Of a stretch of 64,000 nucleotides of DNA, positions 47,494-64,000 are shown one piece after another. The notes below the pieces were generated by a model that was not told the origin of the DNA, ran no database searches, and was given only the letters and a program-made list of their open reading frames with translations. A program made the translations under genes and the position numbers. How positions within the stretch are numbered: position 1 is the stretch's first letter; the number at the start of each line of letters is the position of its first letter. This DNA is from an uncultured Gemmatimonadales bacterium (lineage in GTDB: Bacteria > Gemmatimonadota > Gemmatimonadetes > Gemmatimonadales > GWC2-71-9), in contig CAVZZO010000001.1 of NCBI GenBank assembly GCA_963779755.1, positions 320,001 through 384,000 on the forward strand. The letters run 5' to 3'.

Positions 47494-48633
47494 ATGGAAT
47501 CCAGGGCCTCTTATCTGCGTGGCCGCCGGATCAACCCGGCGCCGCTCACCGGCGGGGAAACGGTCGCCGACCTGGTCGACCAGGCGTTTCTGGCCTACAA
47601 CGCGGGGCGCCTGCGGGAGGGTTGCCAGCTATTCGCCGAACGGATGCTGGCGCCCGAAGTGACGGTAGGGATGAGCCTCACCGGAGCGATGACCCCCGCG
47701 GGGCTGGGGATGAGCTGTCTCATTCCCCTGATGGAAGCCGGTTTCGTGGACTGGATCATCTCCACGGGCGCGAACCTCTATCACGACGCGCATTTCGGCC
47801 TGGGGCTCGCCATGCACCAGGGAACACCGCATGTGGACGACGTGGAACTGCGCGATGCGGGAGTCGTGCGGATCTACGACGTGTTTTTCGACTATTCCGT
47901 GCTGCTCAGCACCGACGCCTTCATGCGCGAGATCTCGGCGCTGGAGGAATTCCAGCGTCCCATGAGTACGGCGGAGTATCACTACCGGCTGGGCGGCTAT
48001 GTGCTGGAGCGGGAGAAGGCGCTGAAGCTCACGCGCCGTTCGGTGCTGGCGGCGGCGCACCAGCTGGGCGTGCCGATCTATACCAGCTCACCGGGCGACA
48101 GCTCCATCGGGATGAATGTGGCGGAGCTGGCGCTGGGCGGGCACGCGTTGCGGTTCGACGTCAGCGCCGACGTGAACGAGACCGCGGCGATCGTGCTCGA
48201 CGCCAAGCGCTCGGGCGGGCTGAGCGGGTGTCTTATCGTAGGCGGCGGCAGCCCCAAGAACTTTCTCCTCCAGACGGAACCGCAGATCCAGGAAGTGCTG
48301 GGCATCGACGAGAAGGGCCACGACTATTTCCTGCAGCTGACCGATGCGCGCCCCGACACGGGCGGCCTTTCCGGCGCCACCCCGGCCGAGGCGGTGAGCT
48401 GGGGCAAGATCGATCCCTCCAAGCTCCCCAGCACGGTGGTCTGCTATACCGACAACACCATCGCCCTGCCGATCCTCACCGCGTACGCGCTGAGCCGCCG
48501 GGCCCCGCGCCCGCTCAAGCGGCTGTATGAGCGGCGGGGTGAGTTGATGCAGCGGCTGGAGAAGGAGTACCAGGCTGCGCGCGATTTCCGGGACCAGCGC
48601 GCGCGTGAGGCCCAGGGCCCGGGCAGCCGATGA
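47494..48633 (+). CDS. Deoxyhypusine synthase-like protein
   Basis: [39 protein letters not shown] with the catalytic Lys. Confidence 0.93.
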
Positions 48634-50655: not shown

Positions 50656-52980
50656 TCAGGCACTTCTCAATCTCAACGAGTTGGACACCACGCTGACGCT
50701 GCTCACCGCCATGGCGGCGGCGGCCATGGCCGGCGAGAGCAGCAGGCCGAGCGCGGGATAGAGGATGCCCGCCGCCACCGGGATGCCGACCACGTTGTAG
50801 ATGAAGGCCCAGAAGAGGTTCTGCCGGATGACCCGCAGAGTCTGCCGGGCCAGCCGGATGGCCCGTTCCACCCCGCGCAGGTCGCCCTGCATCAGGGTGA
50901 TGGCGCCGGTTTCCATGGCGACGTCGGTTCCGGTGCCCATGGCAATACCGACATCGGCCTGGGCCAGCGCCGGGGCGTCGTTGATCCCGTCGCCCACCAT
51001 GGCCACGACGAGGCCCGACTCCTGGAGCCGTTTCACTTCGCGCAACTTGTCCTGCGGCAGCACTTCTGCGATGACCCGATCGGCTCCGATCTCGCGTCCG
51101 ACCGCCTGGCCAGTGGCCCCGCTGTCGCCGGTGAGGAGAATGACCTGGAGCCCGAGCGCGTGCATCCGCTCCACCGCCTCCCGGCTGGTGGGCTTTATGG
51201 GGTCGGCCACGCCGAGAATGCCGATCAGCTTCCCCGCGCGGGCGACATAGACCGGGGTGCTGGCGCTGGCCGCCAGCCGGTCGGTATCGGCGGCGGTGGC
51301 AGGATCCACGCCGTGTTCCCGCATGAGGGCGGCGTTGCCAACCATGATTACGTCGCCGCCCACCTTACCGCCGACACCCTGCCCGGGATAGAGCGTGAAG
51401 TCGCGGGCGGGAGGGAGGCTGATCCCGTCATGCTCGGCGGCGCGGACGATCGCTTCGGCCAGGGGGTGTTCGCTCAGCCGGTCCACCGCGGCGGCGGCGG
51501 CGAGCAACTCGGGCGCGGCAATCCCGTACGGCAGCACGCTGGTCACGGCCGGCTTGCCCTGGGTGACCGTCCCGGTCTTGTCGAGCACGACGACGTCTAT
51601 CTGAGTCGTGCGCTCCAGTACCTCGCCGCCCTTGATGAGCACGCCCAGCTCCGCGCCGCGGCCGGTCGAAACCATGACGGCCGTCGGCACCGCCAGCCCC
51701 ATGGCGCAGGGGCAGGCGATGATGAGCACGGTGACGGCGGCGATCAGGGCATGCAGGTAGTTCGGCCCCGGGCCGAAGTCGTACCAGATGACGAAGGTGG
51801 CGATCGCCAGGGACATCACGACGGGCACGAACACGGCGGCGATGCGGTCGGCCAGCCGCTGGATGGGAGCCTTGGAGCCCTGGGCCTCCTGCACCAGCTG
51901 CACGATGCGTGACAGCATGGTGTCGGCCCCCACGCGGGCGGCCTGGAAGCGGAAGGCCCCGTTGCCGTTGAGCGTGCCGCCGACCACCTGTGCGCCCGGC
52001 TCCTTGCGCACCGGCATGGGCTCGCCGGTGAGCATGGATTCGTCCACGCTGCTGGTGCCTTCGGTCACCACGCCGTCCACCGGAATCCGCTCCCCCGGCC
52101 GTACCAGGATGAGATCGCCCACCCGGAGCGTTTCGACGGCGACGTCGATCTCCCGGCCATCGCGCACTACGCGGGCCGTGGTGGGCCGGAGGCCGATCAG
52201 CCGCCGGATGGCCCCAGACGTCCGCCCCTTGGCGGTGGCCTCCAGCAGGTTGCCCAGCAGAATGAGCGCGATGATCCAGACCACGGCCTCGTAGTACACC
52301 TGGGGGGTCACGCCGTGGGCCGCGAACCAGCCTGCCCCCAGCGTCATCGCCGCGCTGAAGAGAAACGCCGCGCCGGTGCCGACCGCGATGAGGGTGTTCA
52401 TGTCGGCGCTGTGGTGGCGGAACGCCGCCCAGGCCCGGACGTAGAAATGCCGGCCCGCCCAGAACACTACCGGCAGCGTGACGCCCAGCAGCACCAGCCG
52501 CAGCACTTCTGGGGGGAGTGCAAAGACGGCGGGGAAGACGCCCTCGAGCCAGCGGCCGACCGGCATCATGAGCCGCATCAGGGGATCGGCCGTGCCGCCC
52601 TCGGACTGCATGAGCGGTATGGACAGCAGCATGGTCAGCACCGCCGCCACCGCGCTCACGATGAGCTTGCGGCGGAGGAGGGTGATCTCGCGCGCGCGTT
52701 CCTCGTCCTGTTCGGCGACCCGCGCTTCCGGTGTGCTCGCTCCGGCCGGCACGGAGGATTCGTAGCCGGTATCCCGGATGGCGCCGACCAGCTGCTCGGG
52801 GGTTACGACCGCGGGGTCGTAACTGACCGTCGCCGAGCCGGTCATCAGGTTGACGTTGGCGGAAACGACGCCGGAGGACTTCTCCAGGGCACGCTGCACC
52901 CGGGCGCTGCAGGCGGCGCAGGTCATGCCGCCGACGGGCAGGGTGCAGGTCTCGGGGGTGGGCGTCAGCGTGGAGCTCAT
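50656..52980 (-). CDS. copA: Cu(I)-translocating P1B-1 ATPase CopA
   Basis: GMTCAAC metal-binding domain, [28 protein letters not shown]. Confidence 0.97.
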
Positions 52981-52987
52981 CAGGGGA

Positions 52988-53107
52988 CTAATGGTGAGGC
53001 GTGAGGGGTGAGGCGTGGTTCTGCCGATGGGTTCCCAGGAAATACCAGAGAACCCAGGTGATCAGGGCGACCCCGGCCAGCGTGACGATAATGCGGTCCA
53101 GGCTCAT
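52988..53107 (-). CDS. 39-aa single-TM small protein between copZ and copA (absent from the ORF track)
   Basis: [42 protein letters not shown] overlaps the copZ TGA; stop 7 nt before the copA start. Confidence 0.72.
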
Positions 53108-53319
53108 GACTGGCTCAGGGGGAGGGCGTTGTAGCCGACTTCATTCAGGGAGTTGCAGATGGCTTCGATGCTGGTCTGTGACTCGTCGAAGGCTACTTCC
53201 GCCTGGCCCAGCTTGACGCTCTTCGTCTGGACTCCGGGCATCGCGGCCAAGGTCTTGTTGACGGTATTGAGGCAGTGCCCGCAGCTCATGCCCTGGATAT
53301 GAAGCACCAGTTCCTTCAT
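53104..53319 (-). CDS. copZ: Copper chaperone CopZ
   Basis: IQGMSCGHC HMA motif, 71 aa. Confidence 0.93.
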   Translation of the reverse strand: MKELVLHIQGMSCGHCLNTVNKTLAAMPGVQTKSVKLGQAEVAFDESQTSIEAICNSLNEVGYNALPLSQS

Positions 53320-53379
53320 GGAGTTACCCTCGGCGTTGGGGTGACGGGGCCCGTATCAGTCCCGGGCCTCACGCCCTGA

Positions 53380-53408
53380 ATCGTAAATAGGGGTGGGGGG
53401 TATGTCAA
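53380..53408 (-). promoter_or_regulatory. cop operon promoter with a CsoR-type operator in the spacer
   Basis: Minus strand TTGACA-17 nt-TACGAT; spacer carries ATACCCCCCACCCCTAT (ATA..C-tract..TAT). Confidence 0.82.
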
Positions 53409-53415
53409 TTCCTCT

Positions 53416-53443
53416 AAAAAGGGGGCGGCCCGAGGCCGCCCCC
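53416..53443 (-). terminator. Intrinsic terminator of the metal-uptake operon
   Basis: GGGGGCGGCC-TCG-GGCCGCCCCC followed by TTTTT. Confidence 0.88.
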
Positions 53444-53457
53444 CGGTTCGAGCCGGG

Positions 53458-54303
53458 TCAATCCGCGGCGGCGAGGCTCGCGGCGTCCGGCGCGCGGCTG
53501 CTCAGCCGCCGGCCGATATAGGCCAGCAGCAGCAGCAGGCCGAACATGCAGACGATGACCGGCCCGGTGGGGAGATCGTACCGGAAGGAGAAAGCCAGCC
53601 CGCCCGCCGAGGCGACCAGGCCGGTGAGCCAGCTGAGCGCGACCAGGACCCGCTGGCTGCGGCTGAATTGGAACGCCACGGCGGCCGGCACCACCAGGAA
53701 GGAGAACACCAGGAGCACGCCGGCGATGGGGACGGAGAAGGTGATCACGATGCCGAAGGAGAGATAGAAGAGGAAGTCCCACCAGCGGATGCGCCACCCC
53801 AGGCCCAGGGCTTTCTCCGGCTCGAAGGAGATGGTGAGGAAGCGGCGGCGCAGGGCAAAATGGAACAGCCCCAGCGCGGCGTAAATGATGGCCAAACGGA
53901 TGATGGTGGGCCAGGTGACCCAGAGGAGGCTGCCGACCAGGATGTCCTTGATGGCCTCGCTGCCGCGCGGTGCCTTGTCGGCGACGAGTATGGCGGCGGC
54001 GGAGGCCACGACATAGACGATGCCGATGATGGCCTCCTGCGGCACCCGGCCCCGTTCGTGGGTGCGGGTCAGGCTGAAGATGAGTGCGCCGATGGAGGTA
54101 AAGGCCAGGGCGTAGATGAAGGCGGTGGTGGAATCGGGCATGGCGCCGGCCAGCACCGCCACCGTCGAGCCCAGCGCCGCCATCTGCGCCAGGGAGAGAT
54201 CCACGAAGATCACCTCCCGGGCAATGATGTGGAGGCCCAGATAGGCGTGGATCGCCACGATCACCATGCAGGCCACCAGGGGCGGCAGGATCAGGTCGAG
54301 CAT
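53458..54303 (-). CDS. Metal ABC transporter permease (ZnuB/MntB-like)
   Basis: FVDLSLAQMAALG, EAIIGIVY, LVGSLL, GVLLVFSFLVVPA, DLPTGP. Confidence 0.9.
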   Translation of the reverse strand: MLDLILPPLVACMVIVAIHAYLGLHIIAREVIFVDLSLAQMAALGSTVAVLAGAMPDSTTAFIYALAFTSIGALIFSLTRTHERGRVPQEAIIGIVYVVASAAAILVADKAPRGSEAIKDILVGSLLWVTWPTIIRLAIIYAALGLFHFALRRRFLTISFEPEKALGLGWRIRWWDFLFYLSFGIVITFSVPIAGVLLVFSFLVVPAAVAFQFSRSQRVLVALSWLTGLVASAGGLAFSFRYDLPTGPVIVCMFGLLLLLAYIGRRLSSRAPDAASLAAAD

Positions 54304-54333
54304 CGAGGGTCCTTTCGGGGAGCGGGCGGCCGG

Positions 54334-55380
54334 CTACTTGAATACGGCGGTGAGGCCGTTGACCCAGGTATTGACCAGATCGAAATAGGTGTCGACGCCG
54401 GGCGCGCCCTGGGTGTTCTCGGGGACGATGACGGCCGTGGCACCGGTCTTCTGCGCCACCTGCTCGACGGCGCTCCGCGGGTAGTAGTTGGCGGAGAACA
54501 GCGCGGGAATATGGCGCGCCTGCATCAGGCTGATCACCTCCCGGACGTGCCTCGGCGTGGGCGGGATGCCCGGTTTCGGCTCGACGAAGGCGATGCAGGG
54601 AATGCCGAACCGGTCGCTGAAGTACACCCATTCCCGGTGGTAGCAGACCATTTCCTTCCCCCGCAGGATTTCCGTCTGCTTCAGCCAGCCGCCCAGCCGG
54701 TCGCTCAGCGGCCTGCCCTGGTACTGCTTGCCGCCCACGAAATCGAGAAACTTGTCGCTTCGCAGCAGGTCGAGCGTGGTCTCCGGGGTCAGCAGCTGCA
54801 CCAGATCGGAGCCGACCGTGGCCTCCAGAACCCGGCGCTCAAAATCCTTTTCACGCTGGGTGAAGAACCCGGCGTCCGCCGGTGCGATCCGCTGCAGGCC
54901 GGTGAGGATGTTCCGGGCGATGATGATGCCGTTGACCGGGTCGGTGTGAATGTGCGGGTTGCCCTCGGCGTGGATATCCCCCTGCGAACGATCGGTGGAC
55001 GTGGGGATCTCCAGCAGGTGGATGCCGGTGTAGGCCGTCACATACCCGGGGCCGCCCTCGATGACCTTGCGGTTGTTGGCCCGGTCGAGCAGCGGCGGGA
55101 CCCAGAGCTCAAGATCGAGCCCGGTGGTGACGAACAGGTCTGCGTTGCGCAGAATGGCAACGAAACTCGGCTTGGGCTGAACGAAATGCGGATCCTCGTC
55201 TCCCTGGGCGATGGCGGTGACCGTGCCGCGATCGCCCACGATCTCCCGGGCAATGGCGGCGTAGGTGGTGAGGCTGGTGACGACCCGGAGCGGGGCTTTT
55301 CTGGAGTGGGCAGAGGGGGCGGAGTCGGCGCTCATCAGCCCGATCGTCGTCGCGGCCGCCAGCAATGTCTGAAGTAGCAT
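54334..55380 (-). CDS. Metal ABC substrate-binding protein (ZnuA/TroA family)
   Basis: Signal peptide, DPHF, GLDLE.W, GNPHIHTDP, YH, EPKPGIPPTPRH. Confidence 0.93.
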   Translation of the reverse strand: MLLQTLLAAATTIGLMSADSAPSAHSRKAPLRVVTSLTTYAAIAREIVGDRGTVTAIAQGDEDPHFVQPKPSFVAILRNADLFVTTGLDLELWVPPLLDRANNRKVIEGGPGYVTAYTGIHLLEIPTSTDRSQGDIHAEGNPHIHTDPVNGIIIARNILTGLQRIAPADAGFFTQREKDFERRVLEATVGSDLVQLLTPETTLDLLRSDKFLDFVGGKQYQGRPLSDRLGGWLKQTEILRGKEMVCYHREWVYFSDRFGIPCIAFVEPKPGIPPTPRHVREVISLMQARHIPALFSANYYPRSAVEQVAQKTGATAVIVPENTQGAPGVDTYFDLVNTWVNGLTAVFK

Positions 55381-55411
55381 GTCGCTCTCCTGAAATACGG
55401 CCCGGGGGCCG

Positions 55412-56806
55412 TCAGTAGGTCTCGTGCTTGTGGGGACCCATGGCCCAGACGACCTGGAGCGTCAGGGTGTTGTCCGATGAGCCGTCCTGCATGCGGTGGT
55501 GCTGCCCCTGCAGGCGGAGGTAGACGAATTCGCTTTCCCACCAGGTAATGACCGGGGTGAGCATCCATTCGTCGGCATAGGGGCCGCGGGGTGCCTCGAC
55601 GTAATCGTACCGGGCGCCCAGGACCCAGCGCTGCCCGGCCCTGGCCTGCACGTCGGCGAACATGCCATAGCGGCTGCTGCGCGCCCCCGCCTCGCGGGCG
55701 TGCAGGCGGTACCCCTCCAGGCGCAGCGTCACATCACGCCGCGTTCCCGCCTCGGGGGGGCGCCAGGTGAACCGGAAGTCGGCGCCGAGAATGTTGCTGG
55801 TGAGGCTGCTGTCGCGGTTGCTGCCGACGGCGCCGGTGAAGCCCAGCTGGGCGTAGCTGCTGCGGGAGAGTTGCCAGAAGTTCTGCAGCCGAGCGAGTCC
55901 CACGGGCTGTGCGCTGCCGGCCAGGAAGGGGTCGCTGGCGGTGGTGGTACCCTGCAGCCACAACTCGTGCGCACCGCCGGCCAGGGACAGTGGCAGCAGG
56001 CTGTAGACCGAGATGCCGACCCCGGCCAGGCCCTCCGAGCCGAAGAACCGCTGATACACCAGCGGGTATTCGGTCTCCGGCAGAGCGTGCAGATGCCAGC
56101 GGTTGAGGTCTCCCACCTCCTGGCGGAACTTGCCGACGTCCAGCCGCAGCTTGCCGGGAAGGCCGGACCAGTAGATGTAGCCTTCCTCCACCCCGACTTC
56201 GTCCTGCTCGAAGGTGAGGAAGACCTTGGTGTTGGAATAGGGATCGAGAGAAGATTGAAAGGCCAGCTCGAACTCCCGCGCGTCGAAGTTGTTCCGCTGC
56301 ACCCCGCGGTCTTTGGCCGAGATGCGGATATCGCCGGTGGCGCTGATCTCCGGATTGAAGCTGTTGAGATTGCGCTGCTTGCTCACGAACTGAGTGCCGC
56401 GGGCCCCCGCATCGCCGCGGGCGGCCGGCTGCGCCGCTGCATCCCCGGCCGCCCCGGCGGCGGCGGCGCGCAGGGCCGCCAGGTCATCCGCCCCGCCGGT
56501 GTCGGCGGCAAGCGAGGGCGCGGCGGGAGCACAACGGGCTTGTTGCAGCCGGGCAACCCGGTCGCGCAGGCGGCGCAGCGCCGAGCTCATCGAGTCGGTG
56601 GCGGCATCGCCGGTGGGGCCCGGCAGCTTGAGCTGCAGAGGACCCCGGGGACAGCTGCCGGCGTCGAGTGAATCGAGCCGGGCCTGGAGCTGCTCTACGC
56701 CGTGCCGGAGGGAGTCGAGTCCGGCGGCGGGTTGCTGGGCCTGCAGCGCGGGTGCGGCGCCACTCAGCAGTGCCGCCAGCGCCAGAACGCCTGATGATGT
56801 ACGCAT
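55412..56806 (-). CDS. Outer-membrane beta-barrel/porin with N-terminal coiled coil, putative metal uptake
   Basis: Signal peptide, NPEIS..GD, amphipathic strands, His-containing C-terminus MGPHKHETY; GGGAG RBS. Confidence 0.78.
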   Translation of the reverse strand: MRTSSGVLALAALLSGAAPALQAQQPAAGLDSLRHGVEQLQARLDSLDAGSCPRGPLQLKLPGPTGDAATDSMSSALRRLRDRVARLQQARCAPAAPSLAADTGGADDLAALRAAAAGAAGDAAAQPAARGDAGARGTQFVSKQRNLNSFNPEISATGDIRISAKDRGVQRNNFDAREFELAFQSSLDPYSNTKVFLTFEQDEVGVEEGYIYWSGLPGKLRLDVGKFRQEVGDLNRWHLHALPETEYPLVYQRFFGSEGLAGVGISVYSLLPLSLAGGAHELWLQGTTTASDPFLAGSAQPVGLARLQNFWQLSRSSYAQLGFTGAVGSNRDSSLTSNILGADFRFTWRPPEAGTRRDVTLRLEGYRLHAREAGARSSRYGMFADVQARAGQRWVLGARYDYVEAPRGPYADEWMLTPVITWWESEFVYLRLQGQHHRMQDGSSDNTLTLQVVWAMGPHKHETY

Positions 56807-56946
56807 GTTGTCTCCCAGCCTGTGCGGAGTCCCCCGCAAGCGTCTTTGCGGAGCTCCCGCGCTTCGTCATCCCGGCGGTTCCTGCCGGTGCATTTCCACC
56901 GCCGCGCCTCTCTGGCGACGGGGGTGGAGGGGCTGCAGATGTCGAG

Positions 56947-57297
56947 TCAGACCAGGAAGGAGGGAGGGGCTCGGGAGAGGGTACTGGTATGGATCGTGAC
57001 CCCCGACCACCAGATGATCTCCGGGGAAGTGATCGGGAGGATACGCGTTTCGGGGAGGACGATGGCCCCGGAGGCCACCTGCCAGACGTGACGGGGGACG
57101 GACCACGCCAGGCCGAGGAGACAGCGCTCGGCGTGGCAGCCGCCCTCGTCGGACGATTCGAAGTGCGGACCGACGGCCTGTTCGGCGTGGCCCCGATGGT
57201 GGGCGAAGGCGTCGAACACCGGCACGCCCAGACTGCTGCCGACGAAGGCCAGCAGGAGGAGCAGGGCGAGGGCGCGGCGAGCCGAGCGGAAGCGCAT
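56947..57297 (-). CDS. Putative metal-sensing leader/arrest peptide 1 (116 aa, C-terminal SRAPP)
   Basis: Signal/TM segment, AHHRGH..PH..GGCHAERCLLG, LSRAPPSFLV-stop; paralogue of 63110-63448. Confidence 0.8.
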   Translation of the reverse strand: MRFRSARRALALLLLLAFVGSSLGVPVFDAFAHHRGHAEQAVGPHFESSDEGGCHAERCLLGLAWSVPRHVWQVASGAIVLPETRILPITSPEIIWWSGVTIHTSTLSRAPPSFLV

Positions 57298-57380
57298 GGT
57301 CAAGCGCAAGATAGCCGGGCGGCCGGGGCCGGAACACCGGGACGGCATACCCGTACGACGGTGGTCCGGCCCCACGGGAT

Positions 57381-60300
57381 TCAGACCTCCAGCCGGTCGC
57401 CGTCGCGGGCGACCACGGCATAGAGCGCGGGCATCAGCAGCACACTGATGAAGAGCCGGGAGAAGAGACCGCCGACGATCACCAGGGCAAAGGGCTTCTG
57501 CGAGTCCGATCCCACGCCGGTAGAGAGCGCCGCCGGCAGCAGGCCGAAAGCCGCCACCAGTGCCGTCATCATGATGGGCCGGAGCCGGAGCACGGCGGCG
57601 GTGCGGGTGGCTTCGGCGATACTGGAACCGGCCCGGCGCAGCTCGTTGGCGTAGGAGATGTAGACCACCGCGGTCTGCACCGAGACGCCGAAGAGGGCGA
57701 GGAAGCCGATCCCCGAGGACACCGAGAAGGGAGTCCCGGTCACCGCCAGTGCCACCAGGCCGCCGATGGGGGCGGAGAGCACGACGCCGGCCACGGTAAT
57801 GAAGGGAAACTTGAAATTGCTGTAGAGCGCAAACAACAAGAGGAAGATGATGAACAGGGTCAGCGGCACGATGATGCGGAGCTGGTGGCGTGAGCTGGTG
57901 TATTCCTGGTACTCGCCACCCCAGACTACCCGATACCCGGCGGGCAGATGGACGGTGGAGGTCACCTGTCGCTGGGCGTCCTGCACCGCGCCGGCCAGGT
58001 CGCGGCCTTCGACCGAGTACTGTACCCCGATGAACCGGGCGTTATCCTGGCGGTAGATGAACGAGGCTCCGTTGGAGAGCGCAATGGTCGCCAGCTCCTT
58101 GAGCGGGACCTGCGCCCCGCCCGGCGTGGCCACGAGAATGTTGCCGATCTCCTCAGGCGTCTGCCGGAAGCGCGGCTGGAGGCGGACCACCAGGTCGAAG
58201 GTCCGCTCTCCCTGCACCACGCCGGTAGCCGACACCCCGCCCACCGCCGCTTCGATGAGGCCGTTGATGTCATCCACGCCCAGGCCATACCGGGCGATCT
58301 TCGAGCGGTCCACCTGGATCGTCAGGCTGGGCTGGCCCAGCTCCTGGACCAGGGTGACGTGGCGGATGCCGTGCACCCGCTGGAGCACATTGCGGATCTG
58401 CTGCCCCTCGGTCTGCAGCGTGTCGAGGTTGGGACCGAACACCTTGACGTCCAGGGCGCTCTTGAGGCCGGTCTCGGCTTCGTCCACCGCATCCTCGGCG
58501 GGCTGGGTGTAGTTGAAGATGATACCGGGAAATTGCCGCAGCCGCTGATTGATGTCGTCGATCAGCTGGGCCTTGGTGTGGATCTTCCCCTGCCATTCAC
58601 CGTACGGCTTCAGCCCGACGTAGAACTCGGCGTTGAAGAAGCCGGTGGGATCGGTGCCGTCGTCGGGCCGGCCGTGCTCGGATGCGACCACGGTCACCTG
58701 GGGATAGGAGCGGAGAATGGCGCGAATCCGCGGAACGATCTGCGACGATTCTTCGAAGGAAATCGTGTACGGCATGGTGGCGCGAACCCAGAGCGCTCCC
58801 TCATCCAGGTGAGGCATGAACTCCGCGCCGATCAGGGGCAGCAGGAGCAGCGAGAGGGCGAAGATCGCCACCGAGCCGCCGATGGCGGGCCAGCGGTGCG
58901 CCAGGGTCCAGTCGAGCGAGCGTTCGTACGAGCGGCGCAGTGCCTCATAGAACGGGTTCCGCCGCTCCCGCACGCCGTGGCGCAGAATCCAGGAGCAGAG
59001 CACGGGCACCAGGGTCAGGGTGAGCAGCAGCGAGCCGATCAGCGCGAAGATCGTGGTGTCGGCCATGGGGCGGAAGAGCTGGCCCGAGGGACCCTTCAGC
59101 ACGTAGATAGGCAGGAAACCGGCAATGATGACCGCCACGGCATAGAAGATGGGCCGGTCCACCTCGGCGGCGGCCGCCGCGATGACCTCACGCAGGCGAT
59201 ACTGGGTGCCGTACCTGAGGGCGAGCTGGCGGTGGATGTTTTCCACCATCACTACCGCGCCGTCCACCAGGATGCCGAAGTCTATCGCGCCGATGGAAAG
59301 CAGGTTGGCCGGAATGTGCCGCAGGTCCAGGCAGATGAAGGCGAAGAGCAGGGCGATGGGTATGGTCACCGCCACGATCAATCCGCTCCGGATGTCATAG
59401 AGGAAAAGGATCAGCACGGCGATGACCAGGCTGATCCCCCGCAGCAGGTTGTCTTCCACCGTGCGGGTGGTGAGTGCGATCAGGTCGCTGCGGTCGTAGA
59501 ACGGATGGATCTTCACATCCTTCGGCAGAATGTGCTCGTTCAGTTCGCGGGTCTTCGCCTCCACCTGCTTGAGCACGGTCTGGGCCTGCTCGCCTTTCCG
59601 GAGCAGGATGACGCCTTCGACGGCATCGTTCTGCGCGTTGTAGCCGAACTGCCCCAGGCGCGGGGCATGGCCGATCACCACGCTGCCGATGTCCTTGACC
59701 AGCACGGGCGTGCCGTTGTGGACCGCGAGCACGGTGTTGCCGATGTCGTCCAGGGTGTTGAGCCGCCCCAGGCCGCGCACGTAGTAGAACTGGCCGCCCT
59801 CGGAGTAGAACCCGCCGCCGGCGTTGCTGTTGCCCTTGCCCAGGGCATCCACGACGTCGCTCACCGCCAGCCCGGCGGCCGCCAGGCGGGTCGGGTCGAT
59901 CTGGACCTGGTACTGCATGGTCTCGCCGCCCAGCGGGGAATCGTCGGCCACACCGGGGACCGACCGGTACTGCCGCACGATGACCCAGTCGTTCAGCACC
60001 TTGAGGTCCATCGCCGTCCGGTCGGGACTCTGCAGCACGTAGCGGTAGACCAGGCCCGAGGGAGAGAAGAGCGGCGATACGCCGGGGGCGACACCATCGG
60101 GCAGCTCCGCATCGGGCAGGCGTTCGAAGACCTGTTCCCGGGCGAAGTAGTTGTCGGTGCCGTCCTCGAAGGTGAGCCGGATGTTGGAGAGGCCGTAGAG
60201 CGAGATGGACCGGATGACCCGCAGGTGGGGCAGCCCGTTCATCTCGACTTCAAGCGGCACGGTGATGAGGCGTTCCACCTCCTCCGCGGCGTGGCCCGGC

Positions 60301-60497
60301 CACTGGGTGGTGATCTCCACCATCGGGGGAGAGAGATCGGGATAGGCGTCCACCGGCAGCCGGGTGAAGGACCAGATGCCCCCGCCGATCAGAATGAGCG
60401 CGCAGAGCACGACCAGGAACCGCTGATTCAGGCTGGTCCCGACGATCCGGTGAATGAACGAGGTGGCCGGCGGCGTCCCGGCGGGGCTCCCGGTCAC
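57381..60497 (-). CDS. czcA: CzcA-type heavy-metal RND efflux transporter
   Basis: LPVDAYPD, EEVERLITVPLE, TM4 GAIDFGILVDGAVVMVEN, RLRPIMMTA. Confidence 0.93.
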   Translation of the reverse strand: MTGSPAGTPPATSFIHRIVGTSLNQRFLVVLCALILIGGGIWSFTRLPVDAYPDLSPPMVEITTQWPGHAAEEVERLITVPLEVEMNGLPHLRVIRSISLYGLSNIRLTFEDGTDNYFAREQVFERLPDAELPDGVAPGVSPLFSPSGLVYRYVLQSPDRTAMDLKVLNDWVIVRQYRSVPGVADDSPLGGETMQYQVQIDPTRLAAAGLAVSDVVDALGKGNSNAGGGFYSEGGQFYYVRGLGRLNTLDDIGNTVLAVHNGTPVLVKDIGSVVIGHAPRLGQFGYNAQNDAVEGVILLRKGEQAQTVLKQVEAKTRELNEHILPKDVKIHPFYDRSDLIALTTRTVEDNLLRGISLVIAVLILFLYDIRSGLIVAVTIPIALLFAFICLDLRHIPANLLSIGAIDFGILVDGAVVMVENIHRQLALRYGTQYRLREVIAAAAAEVDRPIFYAVAVIIAGFLPIYVLKGPSGQLFRPMADTTIFALIGSLLLTLTLVPVLCSWILRHGVRERRNPFYEALRRSYERSLDWTLAHRWPAIGGSVAIFALSLLLLPLIGAEFMPHLDEGALWVRATMPYTISFEESSQIVPRIRAILRSYPQVTVVASEHGRPDDGTDPTGFFNAEFYVGLKPYGEWQGKIHTKAQLIDDINQRLRQFPGIIFNYTQPAEDAVDEAETGLKSALDVKVFGPNLDTLQTEGQQIRNVLQRVHGIRHVTLVQELGQPSLTIQVDRSKIARYGLGVDDINGLIEAAVGGVSATGVVQGERTFDLVVRLQPRFRQTPEEIGNILVATPGGAQVPLKELATIALSNGASFIYRQDNARFIGVQYSVEGRDLAGAVQDAQRQVTSTVHLPAGYRVVWGGEYQEYTSSRHQLRIIVPLTLFIIFLLLFALYSNFKFPFITVAGVVLSAPIGGLVALAVTGTPFSVSSGIGFLALFGVSVQTAVVYISYANELRRAGSSIAEATRTAAVLRLRPIMMTALVAAFGLLPAALSTGVGSDSQKPFALVIVGGLFSRLFISVLLMPALYAVVARDGDRLEV

Positions 60498-61627
60498 TGG
60501 TTCTCCGCGAACCGCAGAAACAGTCCGCCCTCGGCCACGATGCGCTCGCCCGGCGCCAGGCCGGAGGTGATTTCGTAGCTGTCATCCACGTGCGAACCGA
60601 GGGTGATCTGGCGGCGCTCGAAGCCTTTTCCTGAATCGGCCACAAACAGGAACGGCAGGTTATTCTCGTCGCGCTGCACCGCCGAGGCGGGCACCAGAAT
60701 GCCCCGGCGGCCGTGACGCGAGTAGATGGTGACACGGACGAACATATCGCGCTTGAGGACATCGCCAGGGTTGGGCGTCAGGATCCGGACAGAGGTCGCC
60801 CGGGTGTCCGGGTCTACCAGCGAGGCGACGTAGGTGACGCGCCCGGGGAAGACGCGGTTGTCGTCGGTGGGGCTGATGCTGGCCGAGTCGCCTTCGGTCA
60901 CGTCGGGCAGGTCGGATTCGAAGACGTTGGCCATGACCCAGACGGTGCCCAGGTCGGCAATGGTGAAGCAGGGTGTGGCGCCGCTCTCCAGCAGCTGGCC
61001 CGGGGTGATGAGCTTCTCCACCACCACCCCGGCGATGGGCGCGCGGATCACGGCCTGGGCGGCCTCGACCGCACGTCCCTGGCGGATGTCTTCGATGGTG
61101 GCGGAGTCGACGCCGAGCGAGCGCAGCTGCTCCCGTGCGGCATCCCGGTCGGCGGCGGCCGAGGCGGCGTCCGTCTGGGCCTGTTCCAGATCCCGCCGCG
61201 CCAAGGCGTCGGTGTCGAAGAGTTTCTGGTCAAGGTCGGCGATGTGCTGGGCGTTGTGCGCGGCCACCACCGCCTTGCGGTAGTCGGCGATGGCAGTGGC
61301 AAAGTCAGGGGACGCGACCACCGCCAGGGCCTGGCCCGCCGCCACGTGGGCGCCCGGCTGGACCAGGATACGTACCACCGGGCCCGAGATGGGCGCGAGT
61401 ACCTGCGTGCTGCGGTCGCCGTTGAAGGCCACGGTGCCGGTGACCGTGACGGACGGCTGAAAGGCCACGGGGGCAACCGGCGTGATCCGGAGCTGGTGGC
61501 GCTGGGCCGGAGTGAGAACGAACTCCGAATCGGCCGCGCCGTCGCCGCCGGCCGGCTCGGCACGGTGGCAGGCGCCCGCCAGCAGCAGGCAAGCGAGGGC
61601 GGCAAGAGCCCCGATCCTAGTGGTCAT
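60494..61627 (-). CDS. RND periplasmic adaptor (CzcB-like lipoprotein)
   Basis: Lipobox-like LAGAC, APISG, IRAPIAG, IADLGTVWV, GLAPGERIV. Confidence 0.92.
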   Translation of the reverse strand: MTTRIGALAALACLLLAGACHRAEPAGGDGAADSEFVLTPAQRHQLRITPVAPVAFQPSVTVTGTVAFNGDRSTQVLAPISGPVVRILVQPGAHVAAGQALAVVASPDFATAIADYRKAVVAAHNAQHIADLDQKLFDTDALARRDLEQAQTDAASAAADRDAAREQLRSLGVDSATIEDIRQGRAVEAAQAVIRAPIAGVVVEKLITPGQLLESGATPCFTIADLGTVWVMANVFESDLPDVTEGDSASISPTDDNRVFPGRVTYVASLVDPDTRATSVRILTPNPGDVLKRDMFVRVTIYSRHGRRGILVPASAVQRDENNLPFLFVADSGKGFERRQITLGSHVDDSYEITSGLAPGERIVAEGGLFLRFAENQ

Positions 61628-62939
61628 GCTGTTCTCCAGACGAGACGGTATCGAGCGGAGCGCCAATCGCGCGCTCCAGGTCGGCGCGGGCATCGTTGGC
61701 GGCGCCCAGGGCTTCGGCATACTGGCTTTTGGCGTCGAGCATGGTGCGACGGGCATCCAGCACCTCCAGGCTGGAGGACCCTCCCAGCCCGTAACTCTGG
61801 AGCGCGATCTGATAGGCACGGGTGGCTTCCGGCAGCAGCTCGTCACGCAGGTACACTGCCTGAGCGAGCGCGGTGGCGGCCGTGGCATAGGTGGCGCGGA
61901 CATCCTGCTCCACCTGGGCTTCGAGGTCGCGGTAGGTGGCCGCCAGCTCCTGCTCGTGGTGTTTCGATTCGGCAACCTCTCCGCCGATATGATTCCAGAA
62001 GAAGAGCGGGAGGGTGAACCCGATCGACGTGGTGTAGCTGTTGGGGGCTCCGCTCACCACGTTCTTTTCGACGCTGACACCCAGGTCGGGAACCCAGAAC
62101 TCCTTGGCCAGCGAGGTGGCCGCGGCGGCCCCGGAGCGGACGCGGGCCAGCCCCTGCAACTCGGGACGGTCGCGCAGGGCAATGCCGACCAGCAGGGACA
62201 GCTCCGGCAGGCTGTCGGGGACGCTCAGGGTATCGGTGGTGGCGATGCCGCCACCTACCGTGCGGCCGAGGAGACGATTGAGGTTGGCCCGGGCGGTGGC
62301 GAGGTCACGCTGGTTGGCCAGCAGGTTGTTGGCGGCCTGGGCGACATCTACCCGCGCCTTGATGACGTCGAGGCGCGGCACGGTGCCTCCCTCGAAGCGC
62401 GCCTCGGTCTTCTTCAGAAAATCCTCCGCCAGCGCCTTGCCCTCCTCCAGATCCGACTGGTGCTGCAGCGCGACCAGAATGGCGTCATAGGTCTGCGCCG
62501 TCGCCGAGGTCATCTGCTGCACCAGCTGGACGTAGGCGAATTCGGTGCTGCCCACCTCCGCCCGGCCGATCCGGCCCAGGAGCAGGAACTTGGAGGGAAA
62601 GGGCAGGGTCAATCCGACGCTGACGTCGCTGCCGGTCCGGGTGCCGGGCTGGAAGGGCTTGGCCAGCCCGGCGTAGTCGCCCGCGATCTGGGGATCGGGA
62701 AAGGCGGTGAGCTGGACCTTCCGGGCCCGGGCCTGGGCGATCTGCTGCCGCGCTGCCTCGAGCGCCGGGTTGTGGGCCAGCACGCTGTCGATCGCCTGCT
62801 GCCGGGTCAGGGCCAGGGCGCCCGGCGCCCCGCTCTGGGCGCGGGCGGACCTGCCCACCACCACACTGCAGCCGAGTACGATCGCCAGGCCGCGCAGTCG
62901 TCTGAAGCCGGGGATCAGGTATCCCCGTTGGTGTCTCAT
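61617..62939 (-). CDS. TolC-family outer-membrane factor (CzcC-like)
   Basis: HNPAL, RFEGG, RPEL, LPLFFWN, SSLEVLDARR; start placed at MRHQ after AGGGGA. Confidence 0.9.
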   Translation of the reverse strand: MRHQRGYLIPGFRRLRGLAIVLGCSVVVGRSARAQSGAPGALALTRQQAIDSVLAHNPALEAARQQIAQARARKVQLTAFPDPQIAGDYAGLAKPFQPGTRTGSDVSVGLTLPFPSKFLLLGRIGRAEVGSTEFAYVQLVQQMTSATAQTYDAILVALQHQSDLEEGKALAEDFLKKTEARFEGGTVPRLDVIKARVDVAQAANNLLANQRDLATARANLNRLLGRTVGGGIATTDTLSVPDSLPELSLLVGIALRDRPELQGLARVRSGAAAATSLAKEFWVPDLGVSVEKNVVSGAPNSYTTSIGFTLPLFFWNHIGGEVAESKHHEQELAATYRDLEAQVEQDVRATYATAATALAQAVYLRDELLPEATRAYQIALQSYGLGGSSSLEVLDARRTMLDAKSQYAEALGAANDARADLERAIGAPLDTVSSGEQHDH

Positions 62940-63109
62940 GCCATCCCCTGTGTCAGGATGCTCCGGGTGAAGTCGCAGCATCCGTCGCGGCCGCGCCACC
63001 GCCCCCGCTAGGCCGGGAGCTGCACGACGGCGTGCCGGATGTACACCCTGCGGTCAACGTCCTGGGGGACGCCTGCCGCGTACCTCATGTCAGTTTGTGA
63101 TGGGAAACT

Positions 63110-63448
63110 TCAGACGGCGGGAGGGGCCCGGCTCTGCGTGGTGCGGATGGCGGCGGCCCGGGGGGGCAGCGGCGCCGGCTCCGCCTGGGGACGGGAAGCA
63201 AGCTCGGCCAGCGACTGGATGCCGGAGACGGACGCCCCCACCACCTGCGGCTGCATGGTGACCACACCGAGAACACAGTGCTCGGCGTGGTTGTGGCATC
63301 CTCCGGCGGGATCGTAGTGCGGCCGAAGCGGCTGCTGGTGGTCGGAGCCAAGATGATGGGCCAGCAGGTCAAATCCGGGCAGGCCGATGCCGCTCCCCAC
63401 AAACGCGGTGAGGAGAAGGAGGGCGGCCAACCTCTGGAAGCGACGCAT
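63110..63448 (-). CDS. Putative metal-sensing leader/arrest peptide 2 (112 aa, C-terminal SRAPP)
   Basis: Signal/TM segment, AHHLGSDH..PHY..GGCHNHAEHCVLG, QSRAPPAV-stop; paralogue of 56947-57297. Confidence 0.8.
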   Translation of the reverse strand: MRRFQRLAALLLLTAFVGSGIGLPGFDLLAHHLGSDHQQPLRPHYDPAGGCHNHAEHCVLGVVTMQPQVVGASVSGIQSLAELASRPQAEPAPLPPRAAAIRTTQSRAPPAV

Positions 63449-63557
63449 GGCGGAGCAATGTAGTAGAACGCCTGCGGGGCTTACAACCCGTTGCACGCCG
63501 GCAGGTGCGGAATGCTCCCGGCACTCAAGACCCGCGAGACATCGGTCGGCTGCCGGC

Positions 63558-63599
63558 TTGACGAGCCGTTCCATCGTTGTAGCTTCAATGTATCTACAT
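63558..63599 (+). promoter_or_regulatory. mazEF promoter and autoregulatory operator
   Basis: TTGACG-16 nt-TAGCTT; palindromes ATGTA-TC-TACAT (63588-63599) and TGTAG..CTACA. Confidence 0.6.
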
Positions 63600-63615
63600 A
63601 GACAGCAGGTTCAGG

Positions 63616-63855
63616 ATGTTAGCCCGTATTTCAAAGTGGGGAAACAGTTTAGCTGTGCGGATCCCCCGTGCCTTCGCCGCCGAGCTGGGCATTCAGGAGG
63701 GTGTGGAGGTGGAGATGTCCGTGGAGGACGGCCGCCTGGTGATCGCGCCGGCCCGGCCGGAGTACGGACTGGAAGAGCTGAGCGCCGGGATCACGCCGGA
63801 AAACCGCCACGATGAAACCGACTGGGGCCGCCCCACCGGTGGTGAGGTGTGGTGA
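63616..63855 (+). CDS. mazE: AbrB/MazE-family antitoxin
   Basis: KWGNSLAVRIP, LEEL.AGITPENRH.E.DWG.P.G.E.W. Confidence 0.95.
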   Translation: MLARISKWGNSLAVRIPRAFAAELGIQEGVEVEMSVEDGRLVIAPARPEYGLEELSAGITPENRHDETDWGRPTGGEVW

Positions 63856-64000
63856 CTCCCGACCGGGGAGACCTGGTATGGATCAGCACCGAGCCCCGGG
63901 ATGGGGGTCCCGTGTCCCGCCGACCCGCGCTGGTCGTTTCTCCGGCGCGGTATAATGAACGCTCCGGCCTGGCGCTTATGTGCGCCATCGCCAGCCGGGT
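63852..64000 (+). CDS. mazF: PemK/MazF-family toxin (partial, runs off the window)
   Basis: GTGA overlap; MTPDRGDLVWI..RRPALVVSP..YN..SGLALMCAIASR. Confidence 0.88.
   Translation, partial: MTPDRGDLVWISTEPRDGGPVSRRPALVVSPARYNERSGLALMCAIASR

Follow-up and report, generated by a model that had tools for sequence, protein, structure and literature searches.

What is the function of two small open reading frames (ORFs), each standing directly ahead of a metal-transport operon, in the genome of an uncultured Gemmatimonadales bacterium? They lie on the minus strand of the 64,000-nt stretch analyzed here (assembly GCA_963779755.1, contig CAVZZO010000001.1, positions 320,001 to 384,000; hereafter the window), and encode proteins of 116 and 112 amino acid (aa) residues, referred to as leader 1 (P0001) and leader 2 (P0002). 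A first-pass annotation had read them as paralogous, His/Cys-rich, exported nascent-chain sensors in which metal binding would release a translational arrest at a C-terminal RAPP motif. Sequence comparison, and analogy with characterized systems, make it likely (probability roughly 0.7) that both ORFs are cis-acting regulatory leader peptides which would sense metal as nascent chains. The protein family to which they belong is a real, conserved, and well-delimited feature.

Both ORFs exist as annotated (Table 1), and the alignment of their products (48/114 identities, 42%; E=2e-16) is far beyond chance. Each protein possesses a basic N-terminus, a hydrophobic run, and an Asp-x4-His motif, followed by PHF in one and PHY in the other. 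The Cys/His box reads GGCHAERC (Cx4C) in leader 1 and GGCHNHAEHC (Cx6C) in leader 2, and is separated by a linker of 49 and 48 aa, respectively, from the sequence SRAPP, after which there remain four residues (SFLV) in leader 1 and two (AV) in leader 2. The motifs previously claimed are thus all present, and the spacers to the next genes, given as 140-170 nt, measure 140 and 170 nt; these lengths depend on the downstream starts at 56806 and 62939, both of which are ATGs with a Shine-Dalgarno (SD) site and a signal peptide. In a six-frame translation of the window only three of the 21 occurrences of RAPP fall within 8 aa of a stop, and two of these are the leaders. The third, in the segment 8622-8946 (-), lacks a hydrophobic N-terminus and any similarity to the family, and probably represents an ORF which exists by chance, the DNA being GC-rich.

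When self-matches are excluded, P0002 is the sixth-best match of P0001, while P0001 ranks 32nd for P0002. P0001 clusters with Cx4C proteins, the nearest of which is 75% identical, and P0002 with Cx6C proteins. Because each leader has nearer relatives than the other, the two are, on this sequence evidence, old paralogues and not the products of a recent duplication. The start of leader 2 was set by the family alignment, in which this Met is kept in 89% of members. No recognizable SD sequence is found ahead of either leader ATG (57298-57330 and 63449-63481, minus strand), unlike the genes downstream of the leaders, which have clear GGAG-type sites; translation of the leaders may accordingly be initiated at a low level or in an unusual manner.

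A word-indexed search revealed 19 further proteins of 112-127 aa, and in the first alignment, of 21 sequences, D29, H34, H45, H55, C59, and SRAPP are invariant. The family profile built from this alignment was searched against 1.84 billion representatives clustered at 50% identity, and matched 385 clusters at E<=1e-3, 177 at E<=1e-10, and seven at E<=1e-30. The matches in the annotated collection all lack Pfam domains and informative names; among the 47 profile matches in a 90%-identity collection none is Pfam-annotated, informatively named, or a bona fide DUF2946 protein; and tblastn of a plasmid collection with P0002 at E<=10 gave no match. All taxon-named records are from the Gemmatimonadales or Gemmatimonadota (ten of ten genome loci plus four named proteins), the sole taxon name in a cluster look-up of ten homologues was Gemmatimonadales, and the Atlas neighbors of the family are mostly Gemmatimonadota.

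Conservation of RAPP among homologues had been proposed as a check on the arrest hypothesis, and R-x-P-P proves to be kept in essentially all full-length homologues. RAPP is located 1-6 residues from the C-terminus in 148 of 168 proteins (P0001-P0168) and is replaced by RGPP, RPPP, or RSPP in 12; the other eight are fragments, fusions, or motif-less. For counts by position a set of 150 members was chosen by length (100-135 aa) and a terminal R[AGPS]PP. In this set D29, C59, R109, P111, and P112 are invariant and H34, H45, H55, and A110 are at least 90% conserved, the conservation of R, P, and P being partly by construction because R[AGPS]PP was the selection criterion. The conserved putative ligand set consists of one Asp, three His, and one Cys. 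The ligands had been described as Cx4C/Cx6C plus several His, which is correct for the two leaders; over the family as a whole just one Cys, the second of the box, is invariant, and the first is present in 127 of 150 members (Cx6C in 81, Cx4C in 42, and Cx5C in four) and absent in 23. Between the invariant Cys and the Arg there are 48 aa in 116 members, 47 in 30, 49 in three, and 46 in one; this spacing played no part in choosing the set. The linker has no conserved residues, yet its length is 46-49 aa in all 150 members; RAPP is followed by four residues in 100 of these and by three in 32.

The presence of a signal peptide was judged by reading the sequences together with the modeled N-terminal helix. 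The AlphaFold model of leader 1, generated with the family alignment, reveals a helix at residues 2-34 and coil elsewhere (mean predicted local distance difference test score, pLDDT, 74; predicted template modeling score, pTM, 0.37), and contains no fold worth comparing with structure libraries. The helix is predicted to be an export signal or an N-in anchor. Conserved ligand residues and an export helix would equally be expected of small periplasmic metal-binding or regulatory proteins which act in trans, as proposed for CzcI, and carry the RAPP tail incidentally, and CzcI-type proteins lacking a proline motif are described upstream of czcCBA in passages of a published survey (PMC9973294). 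Such proteins, however, would not account for an R-x-P-P fixed three to four residues before the stop, for a linker which keeps its length and not its sequence, or for the lack of a predicted globular fold; moreover, RAPP is otherwise avoided in proteomes, according to the passages cited from PMC12992588. We consider an action in trans unlikely.

Downstream of leader 2 the gene order is outer-membrane efflux protein (OEP), HlyD-type adaptor, and resistance-nodulation-division (RND) pump, which agrees with the czcCBA-type operon reported earlier. The pump passes the CusA/CzcA-family model TIGR00914 (897.5 bits versus a cut-off of 701.45) and lies much nearer to the zinc pump ZneA, at 755 bits, than it does to CusA, at 544 bits. 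Its transmembrane segment 4 (TM4) contains the string DFGILVDGAVVMVEN, which we take to be a divalent-cation signature. Downstream of leader 1 lie genes for a 464-aa protein, a ZnuA-family substrate-binding protein (SBP), and an ABC-3 permease. This operon had been given as porin, SBP, and permease; the latter two stand, whereas the "porin" is a protein with no Pfam or NCBIfam match, for which there is a single, weak lead: 22% of one nearby Atlas cluster is labeled Porin_O_P. The SBP is a member of the Pfam ZnuA family (153.9 bits) and falls below the cut-offs of all NCBIfam equivalogs (AztC, 87 bits versus 350; ZnuA, 30 versus 268). The His at its third ligand position (CYHREW) presumably hints at the three-His zinc type. 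Since the pump is near ZneA and the SBP belongs to the ZnuA family, zinc is the metal favored by sequence, with Ni, Co, Cd, Mn, and Cu also possible. No gene for an ABC-type ATPase precedes the terminator of the importer operon (53458-56806, minus strand), from which we surmise that the ATPase is encoded elsewhere or shared.

Genomes were scanned for related loci with the pattern [GN]GC[GHD]xH[AS]E[HR]C, which gave 46 candidate stretches and ten confirmed loci (L001-L010). Each of the ten contains a family leader with SRAPP, followed by 3-6 residues in nine and by 19 in L003. The next same-strand gene encodes an intact TonB-dependent-receptor-type protein in eight (L001, L002, L004, L005, L006, L008, L009, and L010), and all eight receptors have a CarboxypepD_reg N-terminal domain plus Plug and/or barrel matches. 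Their highest scores are those with heme/hemoglobin-type and ZnuD models, the copper-receptor model giving lower ones, and all scores are below the cut-offs. The earlier statement that these leaders lie upstream of metal transporters holds for the operons of the window; elsewhere the next gene is a TonB-dependent receptor, in eight of the ten Cx6C loci. In L003 the receptor gene after the leader (L003:6381-8700) is broken over at least five reading frames, which may reflect assembly frameshift errors or a decaying locus; the former might also explain the long tail of its leader. L007 has no receptor gene, and Lgt is found approximately 450 nt after the leader. L005 possesses a second, divergent family member ahead of a second receptor (hhalign probability 97.8%). 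A further RAPP-ending ORF, with LRAPP and a CPHC motif and no Pfam match, is present on the opposite strand of L006 (L006:189-716, minus strand).

A RAPP motif joined to an export signal, with the next gene given as always coding for an outer-membrane protein, might also denote an arrest peptide that monitors secretion or outer-membrane biogenesis capacity, as in SecM, ApdA, and ApdP, and not metal. Against this, the invariant Asp/His/Cys cluster would be left without a role and the operons specify metal transporters, not Sec or YidC components, so that we regard a secretion monitor as very improbable. That the leaders are precursors of a ribosomally made His/Cys-rich chelating peptide imported by the adjacent receptor is scarcely credible, for although a small His/Cys peptide gene does adjoin TonB-dependent receptors, no maturation or export enzymes are encoded in the ten loci or the window, and the C-terminal RAPP and fixed linker length would go unexplained.

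L009 harbors, in addition, a different leader (L009:1055-1411, plus strand), with C-x8-C-x2-C and two tandem RAPP motifs, at the head of an importer-type operon. This operon is homologous to the importer operon of the window: its middle gene, between the RAPP leader and ZnuA, specifies a protein 46% identical to the 464-aa protein. The leader belongs to a second unnamed Gemmatimonadota family of 23 proteins (P0209-P0231), in which PRAPP-x5-RAPP is conserved, followed by 3-4 residues and the stop; none of the 23 matches DUF2946. The profile of this sister family aligns with that of the leader family over the N-terminal 50 columns only (probability 93.9%, E=1.6e-7). Gemmatimonadota thus appear, from sequence comparison, to possess a group of related RAPP leaders among which the ligand box is exchangeable.

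How do these proteins compare with characterized arrest sensors? According to the passages cited here, CruR of Bordetella pertussis (Bp2923, DUF2946) requires RAPP for regulation, and its arrest was demonstrated in vitro, also by toeprinting, the two Pro codons then occupying the P and A sites (PMC9426467; PMC12992588). Its metal motif and RAPP are 45 aa apart, a spacing that is functionally important to within 1-2 residues (PMC9426467), and copper releases the arrest, whereupon Rho terminates transcription. In CutF copper is described as prolonging the stall, such that the next ribosome-binding site is unmasked (bioRxiv 10.1101/2025.02.05.636593). In overall anatomy the present family follows the CruR model point by point. 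Each is an exported small upstream ORF (uORF) which has RAPP about three residues before the stop, ends in a bubble of C over G, and stands as first gene before an outer-membrane transporter, here a TonB-dependent receptor in eight of the ten related loci; the spacer is long in both cases, measuring 162 nt for CruR as against 140 and 170 nt for the two leaders. The spacing between metal motif and RAPP is fixed in both, with a difference of about three residues (45 aa versus 46-49), and CruR is described as poorly structured, just as the modeled leader is mostly coil. CruR differs in having CxxC where the present family has one Asp, three His, and one Cys, and in its association with Proteobacteria and copper in place of Gemmatimonadota and zinc-type targets. 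CutF (Rhodobacter capsulatus) differs in having CxxxC and PPP, and its spacer is short and contains a stem-loop which masks the SD site; a stem of this sort finds no support in the leader spacers here. With the ApdA/ApdP class the family shares a C-terminal RAPP or RGPP motif and its position, a likeness of sequence. A parallel of another kind is Caulobacter CC2720, where a small DUF2946-type gene lies directly upstream of czrCBA, a Zn/Cd RND pump operon, within a zinc-responsive gene set; this is a matter of annotation, and the passages of PMC4176598 propose no arrest role for it.

Two published surveys provide the wider context, as far as the portions cited reach. The first defined "CutF-like" proteins as those of <150 aa which begin with a signal, contain PP among their last 15 residues, and have a neighbor within 1000 nt on the same strand, and collected 5,334 of these, forming 29 clusters whose motifs consist of Cys, of His, or of both; the commonest neighbors are OEPs of RND pumps, followed by TonB-like proteins, some members are probably not copper-specific, and CzcI upstream of czcCBA is grouped among them (PMC9973294). 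The two leaders fall within this definition: they are 116 and 112 aa long, have PP four and two residues from the end, are followed by spacers of 140 and 170 nt, and carry a predicted signal. The second survey reports that RAPP/RGPP is excluded from proteomes, that small secreted proteins are nevertheless enriched in it at their C-termini, and that RAPP uORFs lie upstream of TonB receptor, copper, TolC-family, RND adaptor, and CusA/CzcA genes (PMC12992588). Its cited passages mention no ZnuA-type importer; the searched part of its uORF lists includes no member of the present family, the motif matches all being unrelated proteins; and the string "Gemmatimon" is absent from its main text and searched supplements.

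At the RNA level, base composition (C minus G) was scanned in 78-nt segments, as used for cruR. Leader 1 exhibits a value of +0.37 at 56990-56913, the maximum for this strand over the whole window (0.372), and leader 2 one of +0.27 at 63170-63093, above the 99th percentile of the window (0.231). A C>G bubble is found at the 3′-end of 14 of 14 leaders, namely the two of the window, those of the ten loci, the second member in L005, and the CxxC leader of L009, at or above the 98.8th percentile of its own locus, this percentile referring to the maximum over approximately 32 segments per site in Pro/Ala-rich coding sequence. Pairing of the leader 3′-end with the next SD site is better than the mean of control segments in 12 of 12 cases and never extreme. 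C-rich Pro codons favor such pairing anyway, and anti-SD pairing is therefore retained as a minor alternative only. The spacers contain no intrinsic terminator or sigma-70 promoter, and an Rfam scan of 53000-64000 placed no family in them, its one match being unrelated (E=0.47). A consensus structure computed for eight related spacers amounted to just five pairs (-0.7 kcal/mol) and was discarded. For the five alignable spacers the consensus contains a stem-loop some 30 nt ahead of the start codon of the receptor gene, including eight pairs with double changes; as two of the five rows are near-identical, no conclusion is drawn from it.

Starting from the observed anatomy, conservation, and gene contexts, we infer arrest, metal binding, the metal concerned, the involvement of Rho, and polarity along the following lines. 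The N-terminal helix would direct the chain into the Sec translocon, and the ribosome would arrive at R-A-P-P, which is known to prevent the formation of peptide bonds, when the Asp/His/His/His/Cys cluster 47-48 residues upstream had newly emerged into the periplasm. As about 52 residues separate the Cys from the peptidyl-transferase center, and given the lengths of the ribosomal tunnel and of the translocation channel, the ligand box should lie just past the translocon at the stall. A divalent metal, zinc being the best guess, would on binding to the cluster alter the pull on the chain and hence the duration of the arrest. The arrested ribosome would sit on the C-rich, G-poor stretch, which would extend beneath and behind it, and its dwell time would set whether transcription and translation read on into the transporter genes. 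Most likely the ribosome would shield a site at which Rho loads, as happens in CruR; alternatively, the ribosome-binding site of the next gene might be freed, as in CutF. The notion of exported arrest-peptide leaders of the CruR/CutF type is supported by comparative evidence: R-x-P-P is kept, the Cys-Arg spacing is fixed, the C>G bubble is present, and the leader comes first before a gene for an outer-membrane transporter.

Several results weigh against such a mechanism. Leader 2 stands before an exporter and leader 1 before an importer, and a single polarity cannot suit both. A match to DUF2946, suggested earlier as a check, is wanting: P0002 scores 17.4 bits (E=0.0078) against the PF11162 gathering score of 23.7 and P0001 gives no match, matches at E<=0.01 are restricted to 13 of the 150 members (best, 6.3e-4), and the family has no CxxC, the two leaders possessing Cx4C and Cx6C. 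The spacers, which had been called structured, fold no more stably than shuffled sequences (z = -1.14 and -0.28, single-sequence folds) and, as stated, match no Rfam family. The C>G bias is explained in part by coding sequence rich in Pro, Ala, and Ser, the GC content of the genome being 68%, and SD pairing is only marginally above controls (fraction at least as good, 0.01-0.38 in the 12 cases). The nearest solved structures of the SBP, those of YfeA, Lmb, and MntA, are Mn, Fe, or Zn binders. Finally, the pattern by which the loci were found suits the Cx6C subgroup alone, and the context of the Cx4C subgroup of leader 1 is known from this window only.

Since profile score and CxxC both fail, the family is not filed as DUF2946. 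It has in common with DUF2946 and CruR the RAPP about three residues from the C-terminus and a fixed spacing from the metal motif, and DUF2946 is assigned to 11% of the members of one nearby Atlas cluster. Sequence and analogy together suggest that the family works like CruR and CutF and is a probable distant relative, not a demonstrated member, of DUF2946.

As regards polarity, the proposal that metal binding releases the arrest at both leaders cannot hold for importer and exporter alike. As importer and exporter look to be for the same class of metal, the two copies, and the subgroups that they represent, probably differ either in polarity or in the metal to which they respond. A pattern scan from leader 2 to the terminator of the importer operon revealed no other terminator-like site except chance-level matches within coding sequence, and the gap between the stop of the RND pump gene and leader 1 is 83 nt. 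In the absence of a terminator over this distance the 10 kb from leader 2 to the end of the importer operon may form one transcript with two internal checkpoints. A further-reaching picture is of a zinc-sensing, non-copper, Asp/His3/Cys arrest-peptide family with paralogues of opposite polarity on one 10-kb transcript: zinc would prolong the arrest at the Cx6C first gate and thereby switch on the ZneA-like pump, and would release the arrest at the Cx4C second gate, allowing Rho to cut off the importer. Taken jointly these details are tentative and rather doubtful; if true, one nascent-chain principle would set both directions of flux with no protein regulator.

The features of the locus are collected in Table 1. 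The terminator of the importer operon, a strong one, was recognized by its fold and not listed by the pattern scan for terminators.

Table 1. Features of the leader-headed operons, in order of transcription (all on the minus strand; coordinates are those of the window).
Feature	Coordinates	Strand	Evidence
Leader 2 (P0002, 112 aa, Cx6C subgroup), heads efflux operon	63110..63448	-	ORF, family alignment
Leader 2, predicted export signal or N-in anchor, residues 1-26	63371..63448	-	basic n-region + hydrophobic run
Leader 2, putative ligand cluster D27...H32...H44...C51,H52,H54,H57,C58	63275..63370	-	columns invariant or >=90% conserved
Leader 2, linker, 48 aa, length fixed, sequence unconserved	63131..63274	-	
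Leader 2, RAPP codons CGG GCC CCT CCC; stop 2 codons on	63119..63130	-	
Leader 2, rut-like C-rich, G-poor stretch across putative arrest site; C-G = +0.27	63093..63170	-	
Spacer 2, 170 nt	62940..63109	-	no significant fold, Rfam family, or terminator-like site
Outer-membrane efflux protein, CzcC/TolC-like	61617..62939	-	Pfam OEP 177.8 bits
Periplasmic adaptor, HlyD-type; best match CzcB/NccB; likely start 61627	60494..61627	-	
Heavy-metal RND pump, ZneA/CzcA-like	57381..60497	-	TIGR00914 897.5 bits
Leader 1 (P0001, 116 aa, Cx4C subgroup), heads importer operon	56947..57297	-	
Leader 1, putative ligand cluster D29...H34...H45...C54,H55,C59	57121..57213	-	
Leader 1, RAPP codons CGA GCC CCT CCC; stop 4 codons on	56962..56973	-	
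Leader 1, rut-like C-rich, G-poor stretch across putative arrest site; C-G = +0.37	56913..56990	-	
Spacer 1, 140 nt	56807..56946	-	
464-aa putative outer-membrane protein, unnamed family	55412..56806	-	
Cluster A-I metal-binding protein (ZnuA family)	54334..55380	-	Pfam 153.9 bits
ABC-3 metal permease	53458..54303	-	Pfam/NCBIfam match
Intrinsic terminator ending importer operon: 11-bp GC stem then UUUUU	53415..53444	-	z = -2.54

Just past this terminator are genes for a CopZ-like heavy-metal-associated (HMA) protein with MxCxxC (53104-53319, minus strand) and a P1B-type ATPase whose N-terminus carries an HMA domain (50656-52980, minus strand), accompanied by a small hydrophobic ORF. As these adjoin the importer operon, the whole can be viewed as a metal-homeostasis island of approximately 13 kb. 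Divergent from leader 2 are a MazE-like antitoxin gene (63616-63855, plus strand) and the start of a PemK/MazF-like toxin gene (63849-64000, plus strand); the upstream region common to leader 2 and the MazE-like gene contains an AT-rich palindrome, ATGTAGATACAT, near 63590-63610. Elsewhere in the window a deoxyhypusine-synthase-family gene (47494-48633, plus strand; Pfam DS, 227 bits), unusual for bacteria, is located beside a major facilitator superfamily (MFS) transporter gene.

The arrest-sensor principle and much of its breadth, including non-copper branches and RND and TonB contexts, is already published. What was not found in print, the supplementary lists having been searched in part, is this family, its Asp/His3/Cys signature, or a ZnuA-type importer headed by a RAPP leader. 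The suggestion of an "undescribed branch" accordingly stands insofar as the family is unnamed and scores below the DUF2946 cut-off, and must be narrowed insofar as non-copper CutF-like groups and OEP/RND and TonB neighbors are already described in the cited parts of the two surveys (PMC9973294; PMC12992588). The main value of the locus lies in the paired arrangement of importer and exporter and in the distinct ligand set.

Nascent-chain metal sensing has so far been demonstrated for copper only, in two proteobacterial proteins. The present family, with its hundreds of clusters, distinct ligand set, and strict 47-48-residue ruler, would show the same design re-equipped with other ligands for zinc-type import and export in another phylum, and the proposed role would give a function to "hypothetical" genes which annotation pipelines have left unnamed. 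Two divergent copies, placed before transporters that work in opposite directions, would constitute a compact natural system for learning what sets the polarity of such a switch, that is, the choice between release and prolongation of the arrest, which the literature on CruR and CutF has left open.

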